DNA from: Cetorhinus maximus | Lineage: Eukaryota | Assembly: GCF_964194155.1 (NCBI RefSeq) | Contig: NC_135904.1 | Location: forward strand, 27,838,001 to 27,902,000 | Direction: 5' to 3' | DNA: 64,000 nt | Part shown: positions 5,957 through 62,769 of the stretch, one piece after another | Layout: every line of letters begins with the position of its first letter | Numbering within the stretch: the first letter of the stretch is position 1 | The notes under the pieces: model-generated | Database searches by the model: none | What the model was told of the DNA's origin: nothing | What the model saw: the letters and a program-made list of their open reading frames with translations, nothing else | Translations under genes and position numbers: made by a program

Positions 5957-6689
5957 CTGAATCAGAGAAAAGTATTGATAAAACAGTAAAAATAATGCTC
6001 CACAGGGAGGAGAATGACATGGACATTTCTCCCCACAACAAAAACAGTTATTGTTCTTACAATCAGAGACTGCTCCAATAACTGTTGGATTGGGATGAAT
6101 GTTCAGAGAATTCTTTACGCCCTCCCCCTCAACAAATAATTGCGCAGATCGGATTTGGCAGGAGAGTCGCAGCAGGAAACCAGAGCGTGCGCGTTGACCC
6201 TTGGCATTGCCAATGTGTAGTTAGGAGCAGGTGCAAAGGGGAAGGGTGCGTTCACACATGCATGGAAACCAGAGGAGACTTTCCATTCATTTTTATACAT
6301 GCCACCCAGGGGTAAAAGGCAGAAGGGGCATCAAGTCCCAAATGCATCATGTCCTGTGCAAATGAAACCGAGATGCCCCAGAGAAGAGAAGTCTACTGTT
6401 GAAGATATTGGAAGATGAAATGGAAGTGCTTGTGTGCATTTTGTGTTGAATTTATATGGTGTGAGTAAGTGTTGAACATAGCTGCTCAAAGGCCTTTTTT
6501 TCAAGGATGCAGTTGGTTGCTTTTCCTTGTGTGTGAGAATTATTTGGAATCATTAGTGCGTGATGTTTCTGTGAATATATTTTGATAGGCTGCTTTCTCC
6601 CAAAATTGAAATTAGAACCAGTTTGCTCCATGTTTGCATCTGACGTTTTCCCGCATTAGATCAACAGTTCAAACATTTTTCCACTCTCT

Positions 6690-7755
6690 GTCGACACCTT
6701 CCCTATTCCTACAGACACCTTCCCCATTCCCCAGACATCTTCCCCCTTCCCCAGACACCTTCCCCATTCCCCAGACACCTTCCCCCTTCCCTACAGACAC
6801 CTTCCCATTTCCTACGGATACCTTCCTTCCCCATTCCCCAGATACCCTCCCTATTCCCTGCAGACCCAATTCCCCCTTCCCTACAGACACCCTCCCCATT
6901 CCATACAGATAATTCCCCATCCCTGACACCCTCCCCATCCCCTAGACACCTTTCTTCTTCCCTGCAGACAATTCCCCAGACACCCTCCCCATTCCATAAA
7001 CAACTCCCCATTCCCCAGGCACCTTCCCTCTTCCCTACAGAAACATTCCCCATTCCTTAGCCACAGAATCAGAATCACAGAATTTTAAATGCACAGGAGG
7101 AGGCCACTTGCCCCACATGTCTGCACCAGCTCTCTAAATGAGCATTATGACCTAGTGCCATTGCCCTGCCTTTTCCCCCTACCCCTGCACATTGTTTCTA
7201 TTCAAATAGTCATCTAATGCCCTCTTGAACGCCTCCACCACACTTCCAGGCAGTGGATTCCAGACACGAACCACTCGTTGTGTGAAAAAGACACCTTCCC
7301 CCCCGTCCCTGCAGACACCTTCCCCATTTCCTACAGACAATTCCCCATTCCCTACACTTTCCCCATTCCCTACAGACACCTTCCCCACTCCCCACTCCCC
7401 ACAGACACCTTCCCCACTCCCCACAGACAATTCCCCATTTCTTACAGACACCCTCCCCACTCCCTACAGACACCCTCCCCACTCCCCACAGACACCTTTC
7501 CCATTTCTTACAGACACCCTCCCCACTCTCTAGACACCTTCCCCACTCCCCACTCCCCACAGACACCTTCCCCACTCCCCCAGACACCCTCCCCACTCCC
7601 TACAGACACCCTCCCTACTCCCTACAGACACCCTCCCTACTCCCTACAGACACCCTCCCTACTCCCTACAGATACCCTCCCCGTTACCCATAGAGAATTC
7701 CTCATTCCCTAAACACCTACCCCCTTCCCTACAGACATCTTCCCCATTCCCCTAA
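6690..7755. repeat. Minisatellite, about 20-22 bp unit acagacaccttccccattccct, interrupted by a CR1 fragment
   Basis: Many degenerate units at 6690-7060 and 7290-7755. Confidence 0.95.
7065..7292 (-). mobile_element. CR1/HER1 3' fragment inside the minisatellite
   Basis: Minus translation FFTQRVVRVWNPLPGSVVEA-FKRALDDYL is a CR1 ORF2 C-terminus. Confidence 0.9.
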
Positions 7756-10284
7756 GGACAAGTCAGACATTATCACCATTCCCTACATACATATTGGTTA
7801 TATGTCAAATACAAAATGTTTAATTAGATATTAAGATTACTTCAAGTTAGTCAGGTGGATAAAACCAGAGGACATAAATTCAATTATTGAAATCTAAATT
7901 AAAGCAGATGCTTTATTACAAAGAACTTCTTTACACAGAGGGAGATAAATGCTCGGAATAATGTGCTAATGGAGACAAAACATTGGGGACATTGAAATTG
8001 TTTAATGGAAGAATTAGGATAGAAGAGGTGAGTTTTGATGCATTAAATTACCTTTTCTCATCTTTGCCTTTTCGTAGAAGAATAAGGTGAAACTCGAGAA
8101 GATAAAGCAGAAACATCTATAAGTCACCATGCCGTATTGTAAGCATGAATACCTTTAAAGTAAGCTGTGATAAAAACACAGAGCCCATGGAGATGATCGA
8201 CAGTCTGCATCTGCAGCTTCACTCATATTTGGCCATTGCTCTTTAACAGTTTTCAGTTTCTGCTCAGTTTATGAAGGTCTATGCATTAGAATGAATACAT
8301 ATAGTAGGGTGTAACTCTGGGACTGCAGTATGGGAAGTTGAACTGAGGCTAAAAACTGGTCTTCAATCTTTCTTGTTCAAACATTTATTCGCGGATGTTC
8401 CAGTTCAGAAAACACATGATCATCTCCATGACATGGGGATTTTTGCACTGCAAACATTCTGTGGCTGAGCAACAAAACATATTAATTCACTTTGTTCCAT
8501 TGCTGGATGTGACAGTACAATGACAAACTTTAAAATCCTACTGTGAGCTTCTGTATGTTTTTGATGTACGTGGAGGATTCCAATATTAGATCACACCTTG
8601 ACTTAAGAGAATATTTATGGCCTGCACCGTTTCTAGTTATTAATCAAATAACACATACAACAGAGAAACAGCCCATTCAGTCCAAATGGTTCATAGCAGT
8701 GTTTATGCCCCACATGGACCTCCTCCTATCTCTCTTCATCTAACTGTGCTAACATATCCTTCTATTCCTTTCTCCCTCGGTTTGCTTTAAACTTTTAAAT
8801 GCTATTCCTCTCAATGACTAATAATTATTAATAATAATTGAAACATCTTAATAGCCATTATGTGCACTTTATGTCAGTTTGGAATTGTTTGCTCTGCTCC
8901 AGTTAAGTCAATGCAGTTTGATCTCCTCAGTCTGGTCATGACAAGCTGCTGGATATTAGACGAAGCCACCGATGAAAGCTTGCCTGCCGTTTGCAGAGAG
9001 TGAGAATGGGAAGCTTGCTGTTTGCGCGATGGAGTCAAGTAACGCTTCCCACAACCCTCCAGGACAAGTTTACACTTGCAGCTGTAGGTGCAAAGTACAG
9101 CTGAGAGCAGAAGGCGAGGCTCCTGCTGGGTTTATTCTCACTTTCTGATCAAACAGCACAACAAGATGAAAACACTACTTTACAGCACAACGTACGGCTG
9201 TTTCTGGTCTCAGACTGGAATCATTATGGATCTAAACTCCACTGTACCCAACACCGTAACAAAGCACGAGAAGAGGAACATTGCTGAGTACCTCAGGCTT
9301 TCTTTATCGTTCCACTTTGAATCAATGCCACTCTCTCTTAAGGCAGACTAGCTGCTCCCTTTAAAACAAAAACTGACACCAAGTCTCTGGAAGATTTTGG
9401 TTTCCTGGTCCAATTTCTAGTTTTGAGCTTATCTGGATGTACATGTATTGGTTTCCGTTCTGCCACTTTTCTTCCCACTTTTAAAGTTAAACTCCGATTG
9501 AAAGACTGTACCAGCATGATTGCCCCAAAGCTTCAACCGTCTTCCTCGCAAAGGTCCCAGTCTTTGTCCTACCACCAATTGGAGGCAGGATATCTTCCTA
9601 AGGGAGGTGAGATAAGAGCCTATGTCTTACAGTGTTTTTTTAACGGCTGCTTTAAGGTCCAATATATTGGTCATATTGCTTTAAACATATTCTGGTGACA
9701 TTGGATTCCATCTAATGCTTAAATCGGAAATCTACGGATACGCTTAAAATGGAGAACTTAAGGAAAATGGATCAAACCAGTCCTGTTGAACCCAGTAAAT
9801 CGTAGAGAGGAAATAAAACCCACCTCTGCAATTTGCAGTTATAACTCTATTAGCATGTCTCTATAAAGAATACTTAGAGATATTACAAGCAGAAAGTGTG
9901 GGACACTTGCTCAGCTTTTCAGGGAATGGTATAGAAAAGGATAAAATAATAAATGTGTCGGAAGAGGAGAAATTCTGATCCGATGTCGAAACAGTAATTC
10001 AGCTGCAGATTTTTAAAAAAATCCAATATAGCTCAATGGCCCATAAACAGGAGGCAGCCGCTGTCAATAGACTTCAACAGTGTGGAAATCTGCGAGGGGT
10101 CCAGTCTGAGATTCAGATGCTACTTTCTCACTGGGCCAACTATCACTTGGGCAAAGAGTTAAATTGATGGGTCTAGGGCATAGTGAGACCTGGAAAATGT
10201 ACTAGAAATGCAAAATATCTCTTCAGAAGCTTGTCTGTGGAAATCCACATCTGGCACAAATTAAATTGATTTTATTTGTTCGTT

Positions 10285-10640
10285 CATAGGATGTGAGTCT
10301 CTGGCAAGGCCAGAATTTATTATCCATCCCTAATTGCCCTTGAGAAGGTGGTGGTGAGTCACCTTCTGGAATCGCTGCAGTCCATATAATGTAGGTCCAC
10401 CCATTGTGCTGCTAGGGAAGGAGTTTCAGGATTTTAACCCAGTGACAGTGAAGGAACGTCAATGAATATCATGGGAAAATGGTTAGATTTTCTCTTGATG
10501 CAAGTCACTGACTGGCACGTGTCATTTGCCACGCCAAGCCTGAATGTTGTCCAGGTCTTGCTGCATGGAGGACTGGACTGGAATTGCGCATGGTACTCAG
10601 CAATCACCAGTGAACATCCCAATTTCAGACCTTATGCTGG
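10285..10640 (-). mobile_element. Internally deleted 3' fragment of the LINE family at 30922
   Basis: ccatccctaattgcccttgagaaggtggtggtgagtcacc is the reverse complement of 33795-33835. Confidence 0.8.
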
Positions 10641-12239
10641 AGGGAAGGGATTGGAGGATGGTGTTAGGGCTAGGCTTGATGTGAAAAACAGAAAGGAAAA
10701 TCTTGAGCCAGGTTACAGGTGATGAGGTCCCAGACAGTGTTCTTCCTGGAGACAAAGAAATGATGGCGATTCAGGAGCTTCTACACATGAGGATCAACAG
10801 GAGCATGATCTCGCGGTTCATTGGGAGGGCCATGTGCTTCATGGGCTGACAATTCAACCCACTGGGGCCCACTTTATTCTGTAGGAAGGTGATGGGAAGA
10901 ATGCAGCAGTGGAAATGAGTGATCCACTTGATGAAGTGGAGTCATTGGAGTGATTGAAAAGGTCACATTGAAAGCTACCAGAGCTATGTACTACACCCTC
11001 TTCCAAGAGGCTGATAAAATGATGCCCTGAACACCTTGCATGAATTTCCACAATGCTACCCACTTAGTGTTACAGGCAGGAGTTGATCTGGTCGTATTAA
11101 ACATCATCATGTGCTGAGCCATTGCGAGAGTGGGGGAGGAGTCTAGCAGCAACAGCACCAGCTTGGCACCTCAGAGATGGCACTCAATGCGGAGAGCAGA
11201 CAGTTTGCAGTATCAGGCGATAATGGCAAATTAGATGTGCCACAATCAGATCACTCATGCACTTCATTCTTGGTAAAAATTAACAGTGTTGATACATTTT
11301 TAGGTTCGTCACAGCAGTATCCTTGAAGAGCATTGAAAGATTCTGTCCTTGCTGAGAGAGAACATAATACCCAATCATTTCTGAAAATAGACATGGGCTA
11401 AAGGTGCAATCCTGCCAGTTTCACTTTGCTTCCTTCTTTTATTCGAGCCCTTAAGGGTGAAGCAACAGGATTGTTTAACAATCCATATGCGGGGGGTAGA
11501 CTTCTCCACCTCTCCTGCAATGAGGTCCAGAATCAAGGTCATCGAATGCCGTCAGACAGTGAGAAAATATGAGAGTAAGCTGCCCGCTCCACATGGGCGG
11601 TAGAGACAGTAATCTTGTGGCAATAATGAGGTTAGGTCATCAATCTTACCAAAAATTAGATAGAATTTTTACAGCACAGAAACAGGCCATTCAACCAAAA
11701 TGTTCATTGCCCGTGTTTCTGCTCCACATCAGCCTGCTTCCATTCTCCTCCAGTTAACTCTTGACATGCTTTAGTGCTGAAGAACAATGAGCAGCCTTGG
11801 ATGTAATAAAGGTTCTTATGTTAATTGAAGCAATCACTGGGCTCTGTCTTGACATTTTGCCCTGTTAAAGCACTTTCATTATTCCCAAACTTTCCATCTC
11901 AGTTGTTCGGGGATTCCAAATTTTCCCATAGCTCGGACTTCTGCTTGTTATGGTACATTTATTATTACTGAGCCGGTCATGGCCAAGGAGAGACAGCTGG
12001 CAACGACTGACATATGTTCCTGTTTCTAGCCCACTGACTTGTGTTCTAGGAGTAGACGATTATATACATGCAAAGGAGACCTAATTTGAATGTATTTTAA
12101 ATACAAGTATACTCTTCAAAATCATAATTTCCCAAAGAAAACATAATAGATACAGATGTTGAACATTTCTCGAACAGAAATATTTTGCATAAGCAAATAG
12201 TAAGTTATGCAGTGCAGGATAAGAACTTTACAACATTAT

Positions 12240-13855: not shown

Positions 13856-13896
13856 AAAACATAAGCTTCAAGACGACTGAAGTCTCATTAAGAACA

Positions 13897-14349
13897 AAAC
13901 AAAAATAAAAATACCTGGAAAAACTCAGCAGGTCTGGCAGCATCTGCGGAGAGGAACACAGTTAACGTTTCGAGTCCGTATGACTCTTCAACAGAACTAA
14001 GCAAAAATAGAAGAGAGGTGAAATATAAGCTGGTTTAAGGGGGGGTGGGACAAGTAGAGCTTGATAGAGGGCCAGTGATAGGTGGAGATAGCCAAAAGAT
14101 GTCATAGACAAAAGGACAAAGAGGTGTTGAAGGTGGTGATATTATCTAAGGAATGTGCTAATTAAGGGTAGAAAGCAGGACAAGCTATATTTCACCTCTC
14201 TTCTATTTTTACTTAGTTTTGTTGAAGAGTCATACGGACTCGAAACGTTAACTGTGTTCCTCTCCGCAGATGCTGCCAGACCTGCTGAGTTTTTCCAGGT
14301 ATTTTTATTTTTGTTTTGGATTTCCAACATCTGCAGTTTTTTTGCTTTT
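13897..14349. mobile_element. Young Penelope-type insertion with about 135-bp near-perfect inverted arms
   Basis: About 13897-14030 is the reverse complement of about 14183-14318. Exact 15-bp TSD gtctcattaagaaca at 13882-13896 and 14350-14364. Confidence 0.9.
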
Positions 14350-15380: not shown

Positions 15381-16429
15381 CTGGAGACAGATCACTTGTC
15401 AGGTGCAGTGAAGAGCAAGTGTGGGGAGTGAACTGTTAACCAGGTCTCTGTCCCCATAGGGCTGCCCTGGGCATCCCCTGAGAGCAGGACTGGGCCTGCT
15501 CCTGGAATATGCACAGAATGAGTGCAAACATTCACTGGAGGCAGGAGCTCGGGGTGGTGGGGGGAGGGCGGCACGGGATTAATCTTGGCCTCCCGCCTCA
15601 CTCTTCTCCTCATTGTTCCCATTTAACATCATTTTCAGTGCATGTTGCCCAGGACAAGGAATATTGGATGTGTCTCTTCTCTTACACCTCCCTTATTCTG
15701 TGCACCTATTGGAGACCCAAAAATGAAAATCTCTCTCGAGTTCAGATCTCCCCCATCTCCCCAGCAGAACGCTGACGCCAATCTCCCTCTGACAGGAAGG
15801 TATTTGCTCCTTCAACCTTTTCCCAGTGCTACTGTGTTCCAAAACCTGGCAGATGAGATACATACTCAACTGTTTCTCCATAGAGAAAACCAAAACATGT
15901 TTTCTGGCCATGAAGTTTGTGGTGGCTTTGCTTAATCTTAGATTCAGCCAATTTGTACTTCTGTATGAAATCTAGAAGTTGTGCAAGGATTTTCAAAACG
16001 ATAACTCAGCTCTGACCTTGCAAATAAGTATTTTAATTGGTTCTCCGAATCATTATCAACTCAGATGATGTACTGGATTGTAAAACAGCATGCACTTCAT
16101 ACCAGTTAAAAGACATGAACAGTATATTTTCTAAGTGTTGCTTAACTGATTGTTCCAATTTGAATGATCAGATATTGAACATCTACTTTGTTTTATTTTC
16201 ATATGAGCAAACACGAATCATTAAAACAACCCAAGGAGAAGCTACCTAAAGCAAGACAGTTGGATTTACAGCCTCATGTGATCTATACCTTTTGCCTTGA
16301 CATCTATGTAGGATTGAAGAAACAAAAAAAGCACAATTACTCATTTTTTTAATCTCACTAAATTCTGGTTTATAAACTAGTCCTGATTTTGGTTATTGTG
16401 CACAAGTAGCACATATCCACCTCTTTTAA

Positions 16430-16808
16430 CATTCATTCCCTCCACCAACGACACACAGTGGCAGCGGTGTGCACCATCGACAAGATGCACCGCAGCAACT
16501 CACCTAGGCTCCTTCGACAGCACCTTCCAAACCCACGACCTCTACCACCTAGAAGGACAAGGGGAGCAGATCCATGGGAACATGGGAACTTGCAAGTTCC
16601 CCTCCAAGTCGCACACCATCTCGACTTTGAACCATATCATCGTTGCTGGGTCAAAACCCTGGAACTCCCTCCTAAATAGCACTGTGGATGTTCCTACACC
16701 GGATGGACTGCAGCAGTTCAAGGTGGCTCACCACCACCTTCTCAAGGGAACTTAAGGATTGGCAATAAAAATGCTGGCTTAGCCAGTGATGTCCACATCC
16801 CATGGAAG
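16430..16808 (+). mobile_element. 3' fragment of the LINE family at 30922
   Basis: AAVCTIDKMHRSNSPRLLRQHLPNPRPLPPRRTR plus the shared 3' tail. Confidence 0.9.
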
Positions 16809-17421
16809 AGTAGAAAGAATGCTGTTGAGCTTCCTCTTGCATGGTGAAATTATGGTACAATAATCAACCAGAGAGAACAAAATGGCAATTAAAGAAGCTT
16901 ACAGCACAGCAGGAAGCCATTCAGCCCATTATGTTTATACCAGCTCATTGCAGGAGCAAACATAAAAACAACCCCATTGCTCTGTTCTTTGCCTCAAGGT
17001 CTTGTGCCTTTCTCTGTTGGAGCATGAACATGGACCTCCATCATCTACTAACAATAAAGGCTGGGACTGCATTGATGGACAAATAAAATACTAGTCAATC
17101 CTGTGATTCGTGGGGAGGAAGTCTGGACTTTGTTATTGGAGGCCTGGATTATCAGTCAACCAAAGTCTGAAACAATCGGCAACTGAAGCTCAAGGTGAAA
17201 GCAATGAACAGAGAAGCCAAGGATATAAGAAAAGGCCTGTCACGTTCTTTCAGGGTGTTACTGTGAGTTCAGAGGCAGCAATGCTGGGCCCTACAGTTAA
17301 ATTAGAATTCCTAAACTATGTTGGATATTATTAAACAAGCTCTTCAGTACAGTGGTAACGTGGTGGCTAACACTTTATTTATAGCTTAGTTCTGGCTCAA
17401 TTCAAGTCACCTGGAGACAAT

Positions 17422-18165: not shown

Positions 18166-18269
18166 TTAATCTTCACCTGGTTTGTTCATATCCAATTCAA
18201 TATCACCTTTGAACAACACTTTATGATTGGCCTTCCCAGCCCTACTACTACTACAGCCCTCTACTATCA

Positions 18270-18530
18270 TGAATAACAAGTGCAGTAATATCATGGGAAC
18301 ATCATCACCACCAAGTTGCTCTACAGACGTACACCATCCTGACTTGGGACACATATCACTCTCTTCATTGTCATTTGTTCAAAATCCCCAAATCTTCTAC
18401 CTAACATCATTGTGAGAGGACCAGTATCACACAGACTGCCGTGGTTCAAAAAGGTGGCCCATCGCCACTTGCTCAGAGTAACCAGGGATAGAAATAATTG
18501 TAACCAGGCCAGTGAAGACCTCATCCCAAG
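18270..18530 (+). mobile_element. Diverged 3' fragment of the LINE family at 30922
   Basis: caccatcctgacttgg...gtggttcaaaaaggtggcccatcgccacttgctc aligns by eye with 33670-33870. Confidence 0.7.
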
Positions 18531-19981
18531 ATCAAATTTTTCAATGTCAGTGTTGCTTTAAGGTAAGAAATCATGATGATTAGATTTTTTATATAGTTTT
18601 TACAGGGAAAATTACAGGGAAAATTGAAAATATGTTAAAAAAAGCAATCAAAAATTGGCAAAATGAGACTGACAAAGTTACAATGGGTAAAATGAGGCAC
18701 TTTATTCCAATGATTTAAAAGCATCAAGCTTAATTTTAGGTTTGTGCTCGGGACAATCAATTGGCTTCCTCATCGCTGTCCAAAGTAATCTTTTCTCAAG
18801 ACGCTATCTTCTCCCCTATGTGAAAACACATCAGTGTCTATGTTTCTTGACCCTAAGTGAGCATGAGTCACTTCACAATAAATTAGACCAGTTATTATAA
18901 AAATCTAGGTTAACACTGAGCTTTTAACATTTCTAAGGCCATGGAGACACTCCAAAGCTTTTGTAAAATGCCACCTTATATTTAACAAGCCCTGCTCCTC
19001 CAAGTCTATGGCATTCCGAGTTTTATTAAAGAACTCAAGTGGAAAATAGGTTAGAGGTAACTGCAATCCAAGCAAAAAGATACTGTCCTCAGGTAGCTTG
19101 GGAATACTTCAAAGAACTAGCATTTAAAAACCGCAGGAACCAAGCTCCTTTCTTTAATGCTGAGCTCCCGGAAACATTTAACATTTTGGAGAGAGGGAAA
19201 ACTTTTGGAGATTTATCAAACTTGATTTATTACTGAAATTCTTTATGAATCAGAGCCTATGTAGGTAATGATTCACAGTTAATTTTATTGTCTTGAACGT
19301 ATTACCATACTTTTGGGTATTGATGCTTTCAAAGTAAAAATCAAAGCAAAGAGCACACTAACAATTCAATTCTGAAACGGACATCAATTGTCCACTTAAG
19401 AGCTGGCCACCTTGTTTGCATGTTTATGCCCTACAAGAATGAAGATTAAAAACTATCCTGCTGCAATATTATAAATTGACTTGCAGCCAGAATGCGTTAA
19501 GATCACCCACTGTAATATCAAATGGGTCACTAATTCCAGCATATGTAAGTCTCTCTCTGCTTAAGTGACTAACTACCATTAATCATTCCTGTCCATTTGT
19601 AAAGGACTATCAAAGTGCTTTGCAGCTAGGCCTGGTTCCAAAGGTAAAAGAAACAGAAGACCTTGCGCATACAGCTAATAGATTACAAAGTTGGCTGATG
19701 AAATGAGTAGAGGGGAAATGTCCTATTTGTTCAAGTTTTGTGTCAATGGCTCTGTGTTATGGGGTCTGAGCAATACAGATCACAAATCACCAAGTTTTGA
19801 TCCCTGGTCTGTATTGTGACAAAGTGACAAAGGATGAAGCCCTACAATTAGCATCAATCACTTGAGCAGGGCAAGAGAAGGGTAAATTGTTTTCAAAAAA
19901 TTCTGGATCTTGCAGGAATCCAACATCAGCCCCTGTTATATTGATGAGGTAATAAGGAGGTTCCAGTTGTCTCTGGAATCA

Positions 19982-20290
19982 GGCGAGATGGTGGCGTTGT
20001 GGTAATGTCACTAGGCTAGTAATTCAGGCTAATGCTCTGGAGACACGGGTTCAACTCCCACCATGGCAGTTGGTGCAAATTCAATCCATAAATCTGGAAT
20101 ATAAACTATAGGGAAGGAGATCTGCCACCCTTACTCAGTCTGGCCTTCATGTGGCTCAAAACCCACAGCAGTGTGGTTGACTCTTAACTGCCCTCTGAAA
20201 TGGCCTAGCAAGCCACTCAGCTCAAAGGCAATTAGGGATGGGCAATAAACACTGGCCTTCTCAGCAAAGCTGAAATCCTGCAAAAGAATA
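19982..20290 (+). mobile_element. tRNA-headed SINE (LINE partner)
   Basis: A-box-like tggcgttgtggt, B-box ggttcaactccc, body gactcttaactgccctctgaaatggcc, tail aattagggatgggcaataaa. Confidence 0.85.
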
Positions 20291-20439
20291 CAAACATTGG
20301 GGCCATAAACAATGTCGAGTCACATATGTGATAACAAAGCTGCTGTGCAATTAATCAGAGGCATGAGAATGACCCCTGGTTTGAGACCAGTGTTCCCTCT
20401 AATCTATGCTGGTGCAAAGATGAGCAGCAACCAGCAATC

Positions 20440-20586
20440 CTTCCCTAACAGCACTGTGGGTGTACCTATACCACAGCGACTGCAGTAGTTCAAGAAGGCA
20501 GTTCACTACTGCCTTCTCAAGGGTAATTAAGGATGGGCAATAAATGCTGGCCCAGCTAGTGACGCCCACATCCCATGAATGAATAA
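20440..20586 (+). mobile_element. 3' fragment of the LINE family at 30922
   Basis: ccctaacagcactgtgggtgtacc...gacgcccacatcccatgaatgaat. Confidence 0.85.
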
Positions 20587-20827
20587 ATGCAGTTGGAGCA
20601 TTCCAGTACAAGCGTGCTGCCTCAGTCACACTGTGCTCCCCCAGGAAGGAGGCTCTCACAGTAGGCTGACTTTGTTGGGTCCAGTACAACACAAGGAGCC
20701 AACAGACCCCAGTGCATTCTCCAAAGGTGCACAACAATGATGTTGGTGAACATCAGTCGTGTAAAAGTAAACCATTCTATTTAATCAGTATGGTTCCCAG
20801 TCTGATGACTTTTATTTGACACAAGTG

Positions 20828-26400: not shown

Positions 26401-28134
26401 CATTAGAAATGAGGCAGCGTCTCAAAACAAAATTCTAATTAGTAACTAATTCATTGTTGATTTTTGATATATCTTATTGCTGCTGTTTTTAAATGAACAG
26501 ATTATTTATTTTCATTTTCAAGGTCACTGTTTCAGCTTTCATGAGAACGCTGCAGAATCTTCATGGTTTCACTGGGGAGATGAGAGCTCAAATAAAAAAA
26601 TCACGTGGTGACTCATAAAATTTTCCTGGGCTGATTTTGGTGAGCCAGGTGCCTTAGACCTCTTGTGCCTACTTCAGTGCAGGCACAACCCTGGATTGCG
26701 ATTCTTTGGGTGGGAGGGTGGGGGGGCGGGGTGCAGGGAGAGCGGGGTGGTGGTGGGGGTCGGGGGGGGAAGCGAAGTGGTCATGTAGACTTGGCGTGGC
26801 AGTGTAACTGAGAAAAGCACGGCTGCTGCACTTTTTCTGGGAGGGAGATGCCACGGTGATCTAATTGTACAGAAATGCAAGCCCTGACAGTTCAAAGCTG
26901 ACAGAAACCAGCTCCATGACTGTAGCCTGGCTTTCTTTAAACGAAATGTTAAAAAAAAAATTCCATGAGAAAAATATGCATTGACGAAGAGCCAGTGGGA
27001 ATACATGAACTTTTATCTTTTGCATAATGTTGAGACAGTGTTTTGGAGTTTTGGTAATTAAACACTGTGCGTCATTTTAGATTCAAAGTTTAGGCAAATG
27101 GGATTTGTGTTGGCCTTTTGTTTTTGTATTAAACAGTATGTTTATAAATGGTAAACAGTTCTCCCCCTCAAGGACTGATTAAAAAAGCCAGAAATGGCAT
27201 CTGCTATATATAAAGTGTGGCAGAAGGGCTCCATCTTTAGATTTAATAAAACACATTTCTTCTTTTAGGAAAAAAGGCGAAAGGGCACTAACCTCCTGCA
27301 CTGTGTCACAAAGTACAACTGGATCATTTTTTGGAAATGGTTGCTCAGTATTCTCAATGCCGGCACAGCTGACTCTTTTTGCATTCAGGAGAGCTAATCA
27401 TCAAACACGGCATAACTGAATGAAGTTCATGTGTGGCTCCAATTTCCTGCACTGACTGTGAGCTTCCCACACTCCCCTCCTCAATCATTGTTATCTCGTT
27501 GAAGAACCTTCCCTCCCACCCTCGTCAAATATTAGTAACACTGCAATGCTGTGTTTCGAAATTATTGCATGTTGAGCTATTCTGGACCACTTTGGGTTTT
27601 GATTTACTTGTTCTGCAGTTCTCGATTAGTCTTTAACCCTCACTGCATTACTACTGGGGTGCGAGCATCTTCTGACACTTGCGGGATATTAGAGTTTGAT
27701 GAAACAAGCTTTGAAAAGTTTCCGAGACAATTAATATGATTAAGCATCATGTGGCTTGGCTCGTGTTGAAATTAAACCCAAGAGTTTTTTTTAATGAACG
27801 GTCTTATCAAACCATAATGGATGCAGTGATTAGCAAACTTTTCTTTGTAGTGTCCATCCCCGCACAGTCCTTTAATGTGACTTTTCTGCACTTTAATATC
27901 ATATATTTAACATTATGACAGAACTACCACTACAGTCAGCTACTGAGAAAAAACAAATTTAAACTTTCAAACCCCACTGGTTTCTAATGCGTATTTTCAG
28001 GCTATACACTAAACCGAGGGTTGCAAGATCCATTTTCCAATTGGTACCAGCTCAAAGTAATGAAAATCAGTTTAGTCGACCAACTTATCTGGGATGTCCT
28101 TGACATTTGCTCATTTGTATCCGTCTCTACAACA

Positions 28135-28585
28135 CTCCTTCATAAAGCTCAACTCATCCAAAACTCTGCTGCGTGTATCCTAATGCGCACTGGCCTACGC
28201 TGGCCCCCTGTCTGGCAACAACTTGATTTTAAAATTACATCCTTGTTTTCAAACCCCTCCGTGGCCTCACTTTTTCCTATCTCTGTAACCTTCTACAATC
28301 TTCCGGGGGTCCCCATGCTGCTCCGATTCTGGCCTCTTGTGCATCCCCGATTTGCTCCACCCATGATGGCTATGGAAGCAGCTGCCTGGGGGCTAGGAAC
28401 TCCTGCCCTAAGCCTCTCCACCTCTCTACCTGTCTCTCCTCCTTTAAGTCTTCCCTTAAAACCTATCTCAACTGTTCCAACACCTTTTTACGTAGCTTGT
28501 CAAATTTTTATTCGATAACACTCTTATGAAGCCGTTTGGGAGGTTTTGTTACGTTAAAGGTGCTATTTGGATGCAAGTTGCTGCT
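28135..28585 (+). mobile_element. L2-like LINE 3' fragment
   Basis: LHKAQLIQNSAACIL..LRWPPVWQQLDFKI and tail acgttaaaggtgctatttggatgcaagttg. Confidence 0.8.
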
Positions 28586-30611: not shown

Positions 30612-33600
30612 ATAAGGTAATTAGGAAAGCTAATAGAATGTTCTCATTTATTGTGAGGGGAATTGATTACAAAAGTGGGAGGCTATGCTTCAGTTGTACA
30701 GGGCATTGGTGAGACTACATCTGGAGCGACGTGTACAGTATAGTCTCCTCATTTAAAGAAAGATGTAAATGTGTTAGAAACAGTTCAGAGGAGGTTTACT
30801 AAACTAATACCAGGAATGAGCAGGTTGTTTTTTGAGGAAAGACTGGACAGGTTAGGCTTGTATCCAATGGAATTTGGAAGAGTAAGAGGCAACTTGATTG
30901 AAAACTTTAAGACCCATTAAGATGGGGGAGGCAATGGCGTACTGGTATTGTCGCTGGACTAGTAATCCAGAGACCCAGGATAATGCTACAAAGCCGCAAA
31001 AAAGGAATGAAACCAGATGGACCACACGGCGTCAACCTAGGCACTGGAAGCAATGACGGCAAACTCAGCCCCGTCGACCCTGAAAAGTCCTCCTTACTAA
31101 CTTCTGGAGGTTAGTGCCAAAATTGGGAGAGCTGACATAATCATCCTCATGGAATCATACCTCACAGACAATGTCCCAGACATCATCATCACCATCCCTG
31201 GGTATGTCCTGTCCCACTGGCAAGGCAGACCCAGCTGAAGTGGCAGGACAGTGGTATACAGTCGGGAGGGAGTTACACTGACAGTCAACATCGACTGCGG
31301 ACCCGATGTAGTCATGGCATCAGGTCAAACATGGGCAAGGAAACCTCCTGCTGATTATCACGTACTGCGCTGCCTCAGCTGATGTATCAGTGCTCCTCCA
31401 TGTTTAACACCACTTGGAGGAAGCACTGAGGGTGGCAAGGGTGCAGAATGTACTCTGGGTAGGGACTTCAACGTCCATCACCAAGAGTGGCTTGGTAGCA
31501 CCACTACTGACCGAGCTGGCTGAGTCCTAAAGGACCAAAGCTGCTAGACTGGGTCTGCGTCAAGTGGTGAGGGAACCAACAAGAGGGAAAAACATACTTG
31601 ACCTCATCCTCACCAATCTCCTGCTACAGATGCATCTGTCCATGACAGTATCGGTAGGAGTGACCACCGCACAGTAGTTGTGGAGACTAAGTCCCGCCTT
31701 CATATTGAGGATTCCCTCCATTGTGTTGTGTGGCACTACCACCGTGCTAAATGGGATTGATTTCGAACAGATCTAGCAACTCAAGGCTGGGCATCCATGA
31801 GGCACTGTGGGCCATCAGCGGCAGCAGAATTGTACTCAAACACAATCTGTAACCTCATGGCCTGGCATATCTCCTACTCTACCATACCGTCAAGCCAGGG
31901 GACCAACACTGGTTCAATGAAGAATGCAGGAAGGCATGCCAGGAGCAGCACCAGGCATACCTAAAAATGAGGTGTCAATCTGGTGAAGCTATAACACAGG
32001 ACTACTTGCGTGCCAAACAGCATAAGCAGCAAGTGATAGAAAGAGCTATGCGATCCCACAACCAATGGATCAGATCTAAGCTCTGCAGTCTTGCCACATC
32101 TAGTCGTGAATGGTAGTGGACAATTAAACAATTCGCTGGAGGATGAGGAGGCTGCATAAATATCCCCATCCTCAATGATGGAGCAGACCAGCACATTAGT
32201 GCAAAAGATAAGGCTGAAGCATTTGCTACAATCTTCAGCCAGAAGTGCCAAGTGGATGATCCATCTTGGCCTCATCTGGCGGTCCCCACCAGATGCCAGT
32301 CTTCAGCCAATTCGATTCATTCCATGTGATATGAAGAAACAGCTGATGGCACTGGACACTGCGAAGGCTATGGATCCTGAAATATTCCAGCAATAGTACT
32401 GAAGACTTGTGTACCAGAACTTGCCACGCCCCTAGCCAAGCTGTTCCAGTACAACTACAACACTGGCATCTACCTGGCAATGTGGAAAATTACCCAGGTA
32501 CGCCCTGTAAACAAAAAACATGTCAAATCCAACCCGGCCAATTACCACCCCATAAGTCTACTCTCGATCATCAGGAAAGTAATGGATTGGGTCATCAACA
32601 GTGCTATCAAGCGGCACTTGCTTAGCAATAACCTGTTCACTGATGCCCAGTTTAGGTCCCTCCAGGGCCACTCAGCTCCTGACCTCATTACAGCCTTGGT
32701 TAAAACATGGACAAAAGAGCTGAACTCCCGAGGTGAGGTGAGAGTGACTGCCCTTGACATCAAGGCTGCATTTGACCAAGTGTGGAATCAAGAAGCCCCA
32801 GCAAAACTGGAGTCAATGGGAATCAGGGATAAAACTCTCCACAGATTGGAGTCACACCTAGCACAATGGAAGATGGTTGTGGTTGTTGGAGGTCAATCAT
32901 CTCTGTCCCAGGACATCACTGCAGGAGTTCCTCAGGGTAGTGTCCTAGGCCCAACCACCTTCAGTTGATTCATCAATGACCTTCCTTCCATCATAAGGCC
33001 AGAAGTTGGGATGTTCGTTGATAATTGCACAATGTTCAGCTACCAGACGCAACTGCTCAGATACTGAAGCAGTCCATGTCCAAATGCAGCAAGAGCTGAA
33101 CAATATCTAGGCTTGGGCTGACAAGTGGCAAGTAACATTCGCGCCACACAATCTCCAACAAAAGAGAATCTAATCATTCACCCTTGACGTTCAATGGCAT
33201 TACCATCACTGAATCTTCCAATATCAACATCCTGGGAGTTACCAATTGACCAGAAACTGAACTGGACTAGCTATATAAACACTGTGGCTACAACAGCAGG
33301 TCAGAGGCTAGGAATCCTGCGACAAGTAACTCAACTTCCGACTTCCCAAAGCCTGTCTACAAGGCACAAATCAGGAGTGTAAAGGAATACTCCCCATTTG
33401 CCTGGATGACTGCAGCTGCCACAACACTCAAGAAGCTTGACATTGTCCAGGATAAAGCAGCCCACTTGATTGGCACCACATCCACAAACATTCACTTCCT
33501 CCACCACCGATGCACAGTAGCAGCAGGGTGTACCATCTACAGGATGCACTGCAGGAATTCATCAAGGCTTCTTAGGCAGCACCTTCCAAACCCACGATCA

Positions 33601-34262
33601 CTACCATCTAAAAGGACAAGGGCAGCAGACACATGAGAACACCACCACCTGGAAGTTCCTCTCCAAGTCAGTCACCATCCTGACTTGGAAATATATCGCC
33701 GTTCCTTCACTGTCGCTGAGTCAGAATCCTGGAACTCTCTTCCTAACAGCACTGTGGGTGTACCGACACCAAAGGGACTGCAGCAGTTCAAGAAGGCAGC
33801 TCACCGCCACCTTCTCAAGGGCAACTAGGGATGGGCAATGAATGCTGGCACAGCCAGTGAAGCCCGCATCCCGTGAATGATTTTTTTTAAATCGTGAGGG
33901 GTCTTGACAGGGTGGATGTGGAGAGGATGTTTCCTCTTGTGGGAGAATCTAGAACTTAGGGGTCACAGGTTTAAAATAAGAGGTCACTCATTTAAGACAG
34001 AGATGAGGAGAATTTTTTTCTCTCAGAGAGTTGCGAGTCTTTGGAACTCTCTTCCTCAAAAGGCGGTGGAAGCAGAGTCTTTGAATAATTTTAAGGCAGA
34101 CCTAGATAAATTCTTGATTAACAAGGGCTGAAAGTTTATCTGGAGTAGGCAGGAATTTGTGTTTGTGGTTACATTCACAAATCAGTCGAGACCTTATTGA
34201 ATGGTGGGGCAGGCTCAAGGGGCCGAGTGGCCTACTCCTGCTCCTAATTCGTATATGTGTTC
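30612..34262 (+). mobile_element. CR1/HER1 3' fragment (30612-30915 plus 33893-34262) split by another LINE
   Basis: The two halves join to match 53215-53860 (gattgaaacctttaagatcc|tgaggggtcttgacaggg). Confidence 0.9.
30922..33885 (+). mobile_element. Non-LTR retrotransposon (CR1/Jockey group) with tRNA-like SINE head and one decayed APE-RT reading frame
   Basis: APE motifs (ILMESYL, GDFNVHH, LDLILTN, SDH) and RT motifs (NYHPISLLS, ALDIKAAFDQV, GVPQGSVLGP). Stops and frameshifts present. 3' tail gggcaatgaatgctggc...catcccgtgaatga. Confidence 0.92.
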
Positions 34263-47047: not shown

Positions 47048-47850
47048 ATCATGGCAGCATTACTGGACTAATAATCCAGAGGCCCCAACTAATGCCCCAG
47101 AGACTTGAGTTCTAATCCCATCAAGACAGCTGGAGGAACTTGAATTCAATTAATTAATAAAATCTAGGGTATGCTAACCCCATTAGTAATGATTCCGAAA
47201 CTAGTGAGTTGTCATAGAAACCCATCCTGTTCACTAATGTCCTTTAGGCAGGGGTTCCCAAACCGTGGGTCGTGGGGCGGGCAATTGGGGTCACAGCTGG
47301 AATCGGCTCTGAGGCCCCATGACAAGTGCTCGCACAATTTCTTTATCTTGCCCTGGTTCGGAAGGTGTGCCCTAAGGGGATGAGCTTCAAGGGCCCATCA
47401 CTGCCTCCATCAGAGCCTGCATAATGGTTGGCGAAAGAAACATTGCACCATCCCCACCTCACCCCCCACCCCTACTCTCACAATGCTACCTCACCACCCC
47501 TACTCTCACAACGCTACCCCTCCTCGCTCTCATACCCTTACCGCCCCCAGCCTCCACTCTTACTCTGAGAGCACAACCATTTTTAAGCATCAAACTGGGG
47601 TCACAGTGGGAAGAGGTTTGAGAAGCATTGCCTATTAGGGAAGGAAATCTGCTGTCCTTACCCGGTCTGGCCTACGTGTAACTCCAGACCCACAACAAAG
47701 TGGTTGACTCTCAACTGCTCTCTGAAATGGCCTAGCAAGCTACTCAGTTGTGGGTGGCTCACCATCACCTGCTGAAGGGCAACTAAGGAGGGGCAATAAA
47801 TGCCGGAATTGCCAGTGATGCTCACGTCCCAAGAACAGATGAAAAAAAAA
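47048..47850 (+). mobile_element. tRNA-headed SINE (LINE partner) split by a hAT MITE
   Basis: actggactaataatccagaggccc head, gagttctaatccc B-box, shared body and LINE tail. Confidence 0.85.
47249..47630. mobile_element. hAT (Charlie-like) non-autonomous element
   Basis: TIR caggggttcccaaac / gtttgagaagcattg; 8-bp TSD cctttagg / cct(a)ttagg. Confidence 0.8.
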
Positions 47851-50984: not shown

Positions 50985-53745
50985 AAACTAAAGGCCCTGA
51001 ACTGAAACACAGGTAGCATTCGAAACAAAACAGGTGAACTGATAGCGCAAATAGAAATAAATAAGTACGGTTTGATAGCCATTACAGAGACATGGCTACA
51101 GGATGACATAGATTGAGACCTGAACATTGAAGAGTACGTGAAATTTAGGAAGGACAGGAAGTTAGGAAAAGATGAGAGGTGGTTCTGTTAATTAATGATG
51201 GTGTTAACACATTAGAGAGGGATGACCTAAGTTCAGGAAACCAGGATATAGAAGTGGTTTTGGCTAAGATGAGAAATGATAAAGGCAAGAAATCACCTGT
51301 GGGAGTGGTGTACAGGCGCCCTAATTGTAACTACACAGTAGGACAGAGTGTAAAGAAGAGATAATGGGAGCTTGTCAGAAAGCTATGGTGATAATCATGG
51401 GAGATTTTAATCTACATATAGACAGGAAAAATCAGATGGGCAAAGGTAGCGTAGATGAGGAGTTCATAAAGTGTTTCCGGGATAGTTTCTCAGAACAGCA
51501 CGTTCTGGAGCAAACCAGAGAGCAGGCTATACTAGACCTGATACTGTGCCACGAGATAGGATTAATTGATAACCTCATAGTGAAAGCACCCCTAGGTAGC
51601 AGCGATCATAATATGATTGCATTTCACATTCATTTTGAGGAAGAGATGAGTGTGTCCAAGACTAGTATTTTAAACTTAAATAAGGAAAATTATGAGAGCA
51701 TGAAAGTGGAACTAGCTAAAGTGAACTAGCAAATGAGGTTAAGGGATAAGTCAAGAGAGGTTCGGTGGCAAAGATTTAAAGGGATATTTCAGAATACACA
51801 GAATACGTACATTCCAATGAGAAAGAAAAATTCCAAGGGGAGGGCCCACCATCCGTGGTTAACTAAAAAAGTTAAAGACAGTATCAAACTTAAAGAAGGA
51901 GCTTATAATTGTGCAAAGACGGGTGACAGGTCAGATGATTGTAAAGAATACAAAGAACAGCAAAGAACGACAAAAAGATTAAGAGAGAATTAGAGAAAGT
52001 TAGAGTGCGAGAGAAAACTAGCTAGCAATATAAAGACGGATAGTAAGAGTTTCTATAGACACTTAAATAAGAAAAAAGTTAACAAAGTGAGCGTTGGTCC
52101 CATAGATAGTGCATCTGGGGAATTGATAATGGAAAGTAGGGAAATGGCGGATGAATTAAACAGGTATTTTGTTTTGGTCTTCACTATAGACGACACAAGT
52201 AACATCCCAGAAATAGATGTAAATCAGGAAATGGAAGGGAGGGAGGAACTTGGGATAATTACAATCACCAGGGTAGTGGCATTGAGCAAATTGTTGGGGC
52301 TGCGGGCTGACAAATCCCCGGGTCCAGATGGACTTCTCTCTAAGGTCTTGAAAGAAGTGAGTCATGAGATAGTTGATGTACTGGTTTTAATTCTCCAAAA
52401 TTCCCTAGATTCGGGGAAGGCTCCATTAGATTGGAAAATAGCAAATGTAACTCCTTTATTCAAAAAGGGAGACAGAAAGTAGGAAACTATAGGCCAGTTA
52501 GCTTAACATCTGTCATAGAGAAAATGTTAGAAGCTATTATTAAAGATGTTATAAGAGGGCACTTAGAAAAATTCAAGGTAATTAGGCAGAGGCAACATGG
52601 TTTTGTGAAAGGGCAATCATGTTTAACCAATTTATTGGAGTGCTTTGAAGGAGTCACATGTGCTGTAGACAAAGGGGAACCGGTAGCTGTACTGTACTTA
52701 GATTTCCAGAAGGCATTTGATAAGGTGCCACATCAAAGGTTCTTGTGAAAAATAAAAGCTCATGGTGTAGGTAACATATTGGCATGGATAGAAAATTGGC
52801 TAGCTAACAGGAAGCGGAGAGTTGGCATAAATGGGTCTTTTTCTGGTTGGCAGGATGTAACGAGTGGTGTTCCACAGGGATCAGTGCTGGGGCCTCAATT
52901 TTTTACAATTTATATAAATTACTTGGATGAAGGGACCAAAGGAATGGTTGCTAAATTTGCTGAAGACGCAAAGATAGGTAGGAAAGTAAATTGTGAAGAG
53001 GACATAGGAGACTACAAAGGGACATAGATAGGTTAAGTGAGTAGGCAAAGATCTGGCAGATGGAGTATAATGTGGGCAAATGAGAAATTGTCCATTTTGG
53101 CAGGAAGAATAATAAAGCTAATTATCTAAATGGTGAGAGATTGCAGAGCTCAGAGTTTCAGAGAGATCTGGGTGTCCTAGTGCATGAATCACAAAAGGCT
53201 AGTATGCAGGTACAGCAAGTAATTAGGAAAGCTAATAATTTATTGTGAGGGGAATTGATTACAAAAGTAGGGAGGCTATGATTCAGTTATGTAGGGAACT
53301 GGCGGGACCACATCTGGAGTATAGTCTCCTTATTTAAGGGAAGATGTAAATGTGTTAGAAGCATTTCAGAGATGGTTTACTAGACTAATACCAGGAATGG
53401 TGGGTTGTCTTATGAGGAAAGGTTGGACAGGTTAGGCTTGTATCCACTGGAGTTTAGAAGAGTAAGAGTTGGCTTGATTGAAACCTTTAAGATCCTGAGG
53501 GGTCTTGACAGGGTGGATGTGGAGAGAATGTTTCTCCTTGTGAGAGAATCTAGAACTAAGGGTCGCTGTCACTGCTTAAAAATAAGGGCTCGCTTATTTA
53601 AGACAGAGATGAGGAGAAATTTTCTCTCTGAAAGCGTTAGGAGTCTTTGGAACTCTCTTCCTCCAAAGGCGGTGGGAGCAGAGTCTTGAATATTTTTAAG
53701 GCAGAGCTAGATAGATTCTTGATTAACACGGTGGGGGTGAAAGGT
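50985..53745 (+). pseudogene. CR1 ORF2 remnant (APE endonuclease plus reverse transcriptase)
   Basis: Fragmented ORFs in the track from 51179 to 53689; catalytic motif reads FAED instead of FADD. Confidence 0.93.
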
Positions 53746-53943
53746 TATCGGAGGTAGGCAAGAATGTGGGGTTGAGGTTACATTCAAATCAGCCATGATC
53801 TGATTGAAAGACGGAGCAGACTCGAGGGCCGAGTGGCCTACTCCTGTTCCTAATTCGTTTGTTTATACGTAAACGCGGGAGCTTCCTGCTCAGTCATAAA
53901 GCAATCTGTGGGATTGTCAGTCGCTCTTCTACATATATAGCCG

Positions 53944-54340
53944 GGGGGAGATGGCGGGTGTAGTAGTAATGTCACTGGCCCAGTAATGCAGAAGACCAGG
54001 CTAATGCTTTGGGGAAAGCAGGTTCAAATCCCACCATGGCAGCTGGAGGAATTTAAATTTAGTTAATAAATATGGAATATAAAGCTAGTCTCAGTAATGG
54101 TGACATAAAACTATTGTTGATTGTCATAAAAACCCATCTGGTTTACTGATGTCCTTTTTGGGAGGAAATTACCACCCTTACCTAGTCTGGCCTAGATTTA
54201 ACTCCAGACCCACAGCAATGACTCTTAACTGCCCTATGAAATGGTCCAGTAAGCCACTCAGCTCAAGGGTAATTAGGGATAGGCAACAAATGCTGGCCTT
54301 ATTAGTGACACCCAAATCCCATGAAGAATAAATGAAAAAA
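53944..54340 (+). mobile_element. tRNA-headed SINE (LINE partner), full length
   Basis: gggggagatggcg..gtagtagtaatgtcactggcccagtaat, B-box ggttcaaatccc, tail aattagggataggcaacaaatgctggcc. Confidence 0.88.
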
Positions 54341-58784: not shown

Positions 58785-59182
58785 TTTTTTTTTCCTTCAT
58801 GAGATGCGGGCATCACTGGCAAGGCTGACAATTGTTGCCCATCCCTAACTGCCCTTGAACTGAACGGTTTGCTAGGCCATTTCAGAGGGCAGTTAAGAGT
58901 CAACCACACTGTGGGCCTGAAGTCACACGTAGGCCAGGAGTCACATGTAGGCCAGGCCTGCTAAGGACGGCAGATTTCCTTCCCTAAAGGGCATTAATGA
59001 ACCGGATGGATTTTTATGACAATGATGATCATTTCATGGTCACCATTACTGATGCTATCTTTCAATTCCAGATTTTATCAAAATTTCACCAACTGCCATG
59101 GTGGGATTTGAACCCACGTCCTCAGTATAGCCTGGGCCTCTGGGCTGACCAGTGACATTACCAATCCGCCACCATCTCCCCT
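58785..59182 (-). mobile_element. tRNA-headed SINE (LINE partner), full length
   Basis: Reverse complement of 53944-54340, with an internal 18-bp tandem duplication at about 58920-58956. Confidence 0.88.
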
Positions 59183-61205: not shown

Positions 61206-62769
61206 TAGATTGTCTCACCAATATACCTACCAACCAGTCATTCATGTAAATTTACCAGCCAGTGGAGTATAACTCGCCATTGTTCCAAGCCCATGTTCAC
61301 AAGGTTCATAGCTCACAATCCTGAGAATGAGAGATCTTTTCCTCGTTTCACCCAACACATGGCAAACAGCCCAGTGGCATTGTGTGCACAGGCCACAATA
61401 TTACTGTGCCAAATGGTAAAAAGCGATTTGACAAAAAAAGATCCATGTGAATTAAAATACCACAACTGGAATTTCCGACAGGAAAACCTTTTCTATTGGG
61501 GAGAAATTTGGCACAGAATTAAACAAGCAAAATGAGGTAATAGTGGCCACTGAGGGTAATATATACGAGAAATACAAACAGCTGGAAAAAGTACCAGAAA
61601 ACCCAATCGTGGACACTACGTTCCAGATGTGTCACGGACAAAACTGGAACACTGATATTTAAACAAGACAATGCTAAGCTATGAATAAACCCAACTGACT
61701 GGGTTGACGAAGCACTGGAGTGACCCAGCTCTGAATGCTTTTCATGCATTCCAGGCAGACAGAAAGGGAGAAGTTCAAATTCAAAATGTTAAATTCCTTT
61801 TGTCCGTCAGATCAACAGTTCACACATCTTGAGATACAATTAAGCGGAAGGTCCTTGCTCAGGTGAAACTCTGATATCTTTCGGAGCATTTAAAAGGTAG
61901 TCTTGTCCCTCATTAAGCCATAAAAATCAATCCAAAATATTGTGTCTTTCTGTCTTACAACCTTACGTTATGGCTACTAATTCAGGATTCTCACTGATCA
62001 GCTGCTATTATATTCTACTTAGAATTAATTTTCTTGATGTAATCATCACCGAGAATGCTTTCCCTCAAGTGAAGAAGCAATGTTGTCATCACTGTCAATT
62101 TTGAACACATTCTAGGAACACCAGAGAAGAGGTAATGTTCTTCAAGCCAGCCAGAGAACATACAGTTCGTTTGTCTGAGCTGCATTTCAGGGCTGATAGG
62201 GAATGATATTAAACTATGACCACCCACTCAGTGACAGTCTCATAAAACTTGGCACTTATTTCTTTCCTGGTCTCGGATGTCAGTAGCACTAGCAAGGCCC
62301 TGCTTCTTGCCCACCCCCACTTGTGTGAAAAAGGTGGTATTGTGTGCCTCCTTAGCAGATTATATAACTGAATGATGTGCTGCACCACTGCAGAGGGCAT
62401 TAAGAACCAACCGCATACAATGGGCTAGAGTGACATGAAGGCCAGAGCACGTGGGAATGGTAGGAACCCTTTCCAATAGTCACGTTCATAAAGAAATCTG
62501 ATAGATTCCAAGATGATTTCTTTTCTGATGCAAATACACAAATTGCCAGATTTATTAAATTCAATTTAACAGTGTAATATGATAGGATTCGAGTTGCTAG
62601 TTCAGCACCATATTATTACCCTATTGTCTCCAAAATTGACCCTTGTTTACTAGGAATTAAGTTAATCTGAAACTTGTTTTACTTAGAACCTTCAACCGCT
62701 AATGCAAGGGCATTATGGGGTTAATTTTTGACTTCAATGGAGCATAAAATCAAGCAGGTGCAAAATCAG

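Follow-up and report, generated by a model that had tools for sequence, protein, structure and literature searches.

The window analysed here is a stretch of 64,000 nucleotides from Cetorhinus maximus (contig NC_135904.1, positions 27,838,001 to 27,902,000, forward strand). At 30924-33885 on its + strand it holds a dead elasmobranch Zenon LINE of the CR1 group, nested in a CR1 fragment. The features of the insertion, in window coordinates, are as follows.

30617..30915 (+), left part of the host CR1 fragment, matching window 53219-53495 at 81% and genomic CR1 copies at about 90%
30906..30915 (+), left copy of the 10-bp target-site duplication (the insert is flanked on either side by CR1 majority 1806-1815)
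30916..30923 (+), 8 extra nt between the target duplication and the head, in neither the CR1 nor the LINE majority
30924..30984 (+), 5' part of the tRNA-like head, of the young-subfamily type, with the A box at 30935-30946 and an anticodon-like arm (AGT)
30984..30985 (+), junction of a private 265-nt deletion, with loss of the B box and the SINE-like body
31007..31009 (+), conserved AUG, shifted to the +1 frame against the long ORF and opening a 35-codon frame that overlaps the endonuclease start
31093..33828 (+), decayed single APE-RT coding frame, with the RT at about 32381-33260 and the stop at 33826
33745..33880 (+), 3' segment common to the SINEs (type B from 33745, type A from 33815), with a terminal stem-loop
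33886..33894 (+), right copy of the target-site duplication, after which CR1 resumes to about 34252

Aligned to the CR1 majority, the two flanks of the insert share 10 bp (positions 1806-1815), and we therefore assign the repeats at 30906-30915 and 33886-33894 to a target-site duplication. This bears out an earlier note on this DNA, made from the letters alone, which had described an insertion inside an older CR1 with both ends defined. The note had bounded the element at 30922..33885; the end holds, whereas the start shifts to 30924, where the G-run begins. Target-site duplications are not the rule in the family: a score of 8 or more was reached by only 2 of 14 complete copies, of which one lies in a tandem repeat, and most copies had none. 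The window copy is 92.6% identical to the family majority and carries 10 in-frame stops and many frameshifts; it is a decayed, dead copy. Its B box and body, whose absence the note had recorded, are missing because of the 265-nt deletion, which took positions 63-327 out of the majority sequence at a short microhomology (GCT). The endonuclease motif lies at about 31093, some 170 nt into the element and not the roughly 100 bp first proposed, and about 435 nt from the start in intact copies, but the accompanying point that no room is left for an ORF1 stands.

We collected genomic copies with a head-free query (31000-31400), which drew 6,921 first-look candidates from the 4-Gb genome. We scored 40 of these and retrieved the best 30, the window copy itself included, so that the counts refer to best matches and not to a random sample. 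The tRNA head and the SINE body were found directly upstream of the ORF in 24 of the 29 other copies, the 5' flanks continuing into full head and body in the alignment that the note had suggested. The remaining five were 5'-truncated inside the body, three retaining body only and two the body's end only, and no other shared 5' end or 5' sequence occurred among the 29. A control search of 1.5 kb upstream of 29 CR1 anchors yielded one partial head/body match. An unrelated 5' UTR or an ORF1 occurs in none of the other copies, and the head recurs beyond this locus. We are thus nearly certain that the tRNA head is a family trait of the LINE. A one-off chimera, in which a SINE head was joined to a 5'-truncated LINE at this locus alone, had been kept as an alternative, and the window copy, which lacks the B box and keeps just 61 nt of head, would fit it. 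It is refuted by the full head and body in those 24 copies and in all elasmobranch consensuses compared from a published supplement (below), and the gap in the window copy is a clean deletion against the majority; this alternative is practically out of the question.

Classification of 94 LINE copies by head type gave 51 young and 23 old heads, with 20 left unclassed. Head type predicted ORF type, with 15 linked columns compared with at most 1 in 60 permutations, which indicates that the head was inherited together with the ORF across two subfamilies. The suggestion that the autonomous element itself carries the head with A and B boxes was therefore correct. At least 4 of the 23 old-head copies carry young ORFs, so heads can be swapped; in these four (L069, L253, L259 and L263) an old-type head on a young-type ORF may have arisen by template switch or conversion.

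Whether the family stood in repeat databases had been left open, and it proved to be in print as elasmobranch Zenon. Zenon consensuses from five elasmobranchs (sharks and rays) are given in Supplementary Table 2 of PMC13343379, and by eye all seven of them (CarCar_Zenon-1, RhiTyp, ScyCan, HypSab and SquAca_Zenon-1/2/3) begin with the same head and body. The first 400 nt of CarCar_Zenon-1, from the white shark, are by eye nearly letter-for-letter the same as the majority built here; the two are 3288 and 3278 nt long, and both lack an ORF1 and have an A-rich tail. The A and B boxes are both kept, again by eye, in consensuses from sharks and a ray, and the head is absent from the first 400 nt of two hagfish and one coelacanth Zenon consensuses. 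PMC13343379 defines Zenon by a missing ORF1 and a poly-A tail, and its table counts 3/612 intact copies in stingray and 1/1419 in whale shark. The full copies listed here have A-rich ends, as in that definition, unlike the T-rich tail of the window LINE. In a quick RT tree the element fell into an 11-row clade with an SH-aLRT of 98; this tree held no labelled Zenon reference and had lost 8 of 110 rows at a coverage filter, among them the CR1 flank protein. The probable Zenon identity rests on the by-eye match to the published 5' ends and on length. A CR1-Zenon-like LINE has also been named in the whale shark in the available part of 10.1101/443036.

The family and its head are thus already in published sequence, and the head goes unremarked in the passages of PMC13343379 on Zenon, which likewise hold nothing on T-run avoidance, the missing in-frame AUG or SINE derivatives; the main text has no match for tRNA, promoter or pol III. 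A literature search outside Repbase, Dfam and subscription journals returned no description of a tRNA head on Zenon. The subfamily linkage of head and ORF and the breakpoint map are newly worked out here.

The young majority was built from 18 near-full copies, that is, 17 of 20 fetched plus the window copy; L062, L063 and L069 were left out for a large deletion, insertion or rearrangement. From the old majority the chimeras L282, L299 and L300 (3 of 20) were left out. The family majority is 3,278 nt long, with the body reaching about 320. Its A box at 14-25 and B box at 77-88 stand at tRNA spacing, with an anticodon-like arm carrying AGT; A and B boxes and one ORF are what the note had proposed to look for in a consensus. 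ARAGORN called the head a tRNA in 3 of 10 full loci (Thr once, Ile twice), and Rfam gave no tRNA match in the 4 loci tested. From the boxes we infer that the head may be a working Pol III promoter. The majority has one 968-codon APE-RT frame, in which the RT is RVT_1, and the endonuclease was recognized as Exo_endo_phos_2 (Pfam) on 3 of 3 natural copies. No other sense-strand frame exceeds 106 codons, and only the 435 nt or so already mentioned precede the endonuclease.

This frame has no in-frame AUG before the endonuclease in the majority, and its first in-frame Met comes after it; proteins of the same RT clade start at a Met that lies 10-30 residues upstream of the endonuclease. An AUG at majority 351, in the +1 frame, opens the 35 codons that overlap the endonuclease start. 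It is conserved in 66 of 91 copies, and its spacing to the ORF is unchanged in 56 of the 91. We rejected a subpopulation with an in-frame AUG, as in-frame spacing forms no subpopulation among the 91 copies. Read-through of the stop at majority 302-304, in a short AUG frame, was rejected by eye because many copies, and the Squalus consensuses too, have a stop after it. Shared variants in the frame overlap were silent in the APE frame in 16 of 39 cases compared with 10 of 39 in the AUG frame, a weak difference for which no significance was computed. Folding gave no signal of structured RNA near the AUG (z from -0.1 to -1.0) or in the head and body, and the 3' stem-loop had a fold z of -2.3 against mononucleotide shuffles. 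In SquAca_Zenon-2, from the supplement of PMC13343379, a short deletion seen by eye brings the conserved AUG in frame with the endonuclease; it may mark a subfamily or be a consensus artefact.

Vertebrate Pol III stops at runs of four or more T. On its sense strand, the 18-copy majority contains 6 runs of three or more T, compared with 47 of A, 50 of C and 41 of G, and no run of four or more T, compared with 15, 11 and 9 for A, C and G. Within the ORF, 4 runs of three or more T were observed against 12.8 expected under synonymous-codon shuffling (P about 0.0003). The T3 deficit gave P 0.03 under dinucleotide shuffling. The absence of T4 runs alone gave P 0.01 under a mononucleotide null, and was not significant under the stricter ones (0.09 for the synonymous shuffle, 0.20 for the dinucleotide shuffle). 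A synonymous T that would make TTT across a codon border was used at 0 of 38 opportunities in the element. The CR1 of this genome used it at 12 of 27, and 63 control ORFs pooled at 1911 of 4307, the lowest single control being 3 of 27. The observed/expected ratio for T3 in the ORF was 0.31, whereas 63 control LINE ORFs had a minimum of 0.67 and a median of 0.98. These controls came from 80 metagenome loci, 17 of which were left out as they had no ORF of 350 codons. The older subfamily majority also has 6 T3 and no T4 runs despite 129 differences, although the two majorities are not independent. The element's RT clade contains none of the 63 DNA controls, and there is no headless Zenon among them, so that the avoidance of T may be a trait of Zenon that predates the head.

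On this evidence the full element has, in our judgement, about an even chance of being transcribed by Pol III. The same even chance applies to our reading of the locus as a dead copy of a 3.3-kb single-ORF Zenon whose family would be Pol III-transcribed end to end and would shed SINEs. On the other side, RNAs made by Pol III usually lack a cap. They are also usually short (PMC10886601, available part). A rather unlikely alternative is that the head is real throughout the family and the element is made by Pol II, through host read-through or a promoter in the body, with the tRNA part a relic or serving at the RNA level in processing, stability or translation. Non-LTR elements are described as Pol II transcribed in the available part of PMC10886601. 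Public RNA contigs covering the head run on into the flanks with loose ends, a point for Pol II; thousands of dead copies inside host transcripts should, however, yield such read-through contigs as well, and the contigs carry no start, strand or polymerase information. TT itself is depleted (observed/expected 0.69; 7 of 53 compared with 154 of 460), which is not directly predicted by Pol III termination and is broader than terminator avoidance needs. Against Pol II, both boxes are retained in the shark and ray consensuses compared from PMC13343379, and T runs are not depleted in this genome's CR1 or in an L2-like fragment from it (the L2 control, from which L307 was left out, spans only 450-650 nt). 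In a coral-labelled metatranscriptome run (X15) we also saw the element in short fragments at 85-95%, which may stem from shark material carried over.

Four SINEs of the window share both head and tail with the LINE.

19981..20294 (+), type A SINE with an internal deletion
47048..47849 (+), SINE whose junction differs (majority 320|3182) and which an insertion interrupts
53943..54340 (+), full-length type A SINE
58785..59182 (-), full-length type A SINE

The first 61 nt of the window LINE align with the heads of these SINEs (at 19981, 47048, 53943 and 59182(-)), and its last 65 nt or so match their four tails at 76-80%. The note was thus right about the common head and tail. The four SINEs differ among themselves, 47048 having another junction and the insertion, while 19981, 53943 and 58785 have a common junction. 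Since the window LINE is of the young type and the window SINEs are of the old type, the SINEs correspond to the older subfamily minus its ORF, and not to this copy's. Further partial SINE or head/body copies lie at 1603-1718 (-), 2327-2528 (-) and 62340-62452 (-). The window also holds four 5'-truncated Zenon 3' fragments, at 16428-16819 (+), 10270-10648 (-), 18258-18527 (+) and 20438-20587 (+), which match the young majority at 67-89%, several with older-type tails.

A 25-nt motif from the end of the body is matched exactly 5,370 times in the genome. The first 30 on contig 1 led into a SINE-A tail (21), a long stretch of the ORF (5), a longer SINE-B junction (2), a brief stretch of the ORF and then the tail (1) and an unrelated insertion (1). 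On the majority, the junctions lie at 317|3198 for SINE-A, at about 334|3128 for SINE-B and at scattered positions up to 368|3151, the SINE-B and scattered junctions having been enriched by targeted searches; those that reach 368 keep the AUG region. The junction map and the head and tail majorities indicate that the SINEs consist only of the 5' and 3' ends of their partner LINE. SINE-A shares head and tail variants with the old LINE subfamily, and two SINE families with different breakpoints match that subfamily at both ends. Divergence from the own majority is 7.5% for the young LINE, 10.4% for the old LINE, 10.5% for SINE-A and 13.6% for SINE-B. One-off or small-family junctions retain LINE sequence to 350-368, beyond any SINE, which shows that deletion from the LINE does happen, and some deletion junctions carry young-type heads (L225, L231 and L237). 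One old copy (L046, 1224-1830) has a Squalus-like head and passes straight to the tail after about 200 nt of the coding start. The SINE body had no exact match in prokaryote and viral collections, as expected, and a first metagenome scan was also empty.

We consider it probable from these junctions that the present SINE families are deletion derivatives of the LINE, as the earlier note had proposed. Its proposal is supported by the older LINE subfamily matched at both ends and by the several breakpoints, and stays unproven, the direction of head capture being unrooted; the LINE-to-SINE direction appears supported for the minor junctions and SINE-A and is not rooted for SINE-B. The head must have been captured once, from a tRNA or a SINE. 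In a rather unlikely alternative the SINE came first: through template switching, a headless Zenon took over the 5' part of a tRNA SINE with a Zenon tail, and today's SINEs descend from that SINE and swap heads with the LINE. Headless Zenon relatives exist in the part of PMC13343379 compared, as do Persaeus/Zenon elements of Lepidoptera that lack tRNA homology (PMC6740152, available part), and bivalve tRNA SINEs use CR1-Zenon tails (PMC11481361, available part). SINE-B is moreover the most diverged class, ahead of the old LINE, and head/ORF chimeras exist. This order of events is harder to reconcile with SINE-A tracking one LINE subfamily at both ends, or with the junctions that keep LINE sequence past any SINE, some of them with young-type heads. 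A SINE-first origin of the head itself is compatible with deletion for the later families, and both can be true.

Taken to its furthest point, the reading is that an autonomous coding retrotransposon may have been on Pol III since before the shark-ray split, its uncapped 3.3-kb RNA purged of T-run terminators and translated without an in-frame AUG, and that it may have shed tRNA SINE families by internal deletion, LINE and SINE forming one lineage. We hold this combined reading tentatively, with somewhat less than even confidence. TFIIIC would bind the internal A and B boxes of the head, and Pol III would read through 3.3 kb, because the element has no T4 terminator, and stop when it meets a run of T in the flank. 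The uncapped RNA would be translated by a non-standard route, either from the +1-frame AUG with a -1 shift or from a non-AUG start, and the 3' stem-loop and A-rich tail would be where the LINE protein primes reverse transcription. If a deletion spared promoter and tail, a ready-made tRNA SINE would then result in one step.

The textbook split holds that LINEs are Pol II-transcribed and coding and SINEs Pol III-transcribed and non-coding, and Pol III processivity is invoked for the shortness of SINEs. With a head bearing A and B boxes and a T-run purge on a 3.3-kb coding element, Pol III service of an autonomous retrotransposon becomes directly testable, as does the translation of an uncapped RNA without an in-frame AUG. 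The deletion route offers a one-step birth of SINEs, and shark repeat annotation would be dividing a single element into a 'SINE' and a 'LINE'.

Several known systems resemble this one in part, as far as the available portions of the cited papers describe them. In Persaeus of Lepidoptera, as here, Zenon yields high-copy derivatives of 5' and 3' ends with variable breakpoints; these have no tRNA, 5S or 7SL homology and no Pol III promoter, whereas the derivative here would be a tRNA SINE from birth (PMC6740152). The bipartite RTE/Vingi SINEs Bov-tA, WALLSI2 and SINE2-1_EC likewise hold LINE 5' and 3' parts, but their tRNA head was added to a non-autonomous deletion product and here sits on the autonomous element; such derivatives are listed only for RTE, Ingi, Vingi and R2 (PMC5786205). 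RTE-1_DAn and relatives in Repbase, known from one sentence in PMC5786205, are LINEs with tRNA-like sequence, as here, and belong to the RTE clade. The TRIMp3 elements Cassandra, Helenus and Ajax are retroelements with a small-RNA Pol III promoter, yet non-coding, LTR-type and at most about 1.3 kb, in contrast to the coding 3.3-kb LINE (PMC10886601). SacSINE1 is a tRNA-headed shark SINE like those here, but with an L2 tail (PMC5499810), and MetaSINEs are also tRNA-headed, with heads resembling tRNA-Thr (PMC4824008). The hagfish Meta, Deu and UCON3 SINE sequences in the available part of PMC7245038 are by eye unlike the body here, and motif searches of two supplements for a conserved central domain of the Meta-, Deu- or UCON3-SINE kind gave no match.

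Some minor observations were made in passing. LINE RT pieces lie inside predicted ray and catshark gene models (P0001 and P0004), one of them named cystathionine beta-synthase-like, probably through mis-annotation. Elsewhere in the window, 6681-7752 contains degenerate tandem-like repeats, and 27988-28515 (+) is an L2-like 3' coding fragment at about 70% to other genomic copies. An inverted pair at 13895-14027 and 14186-14318 has arms of 133 nt that are 98.5% identical and lie 160 nt apart.
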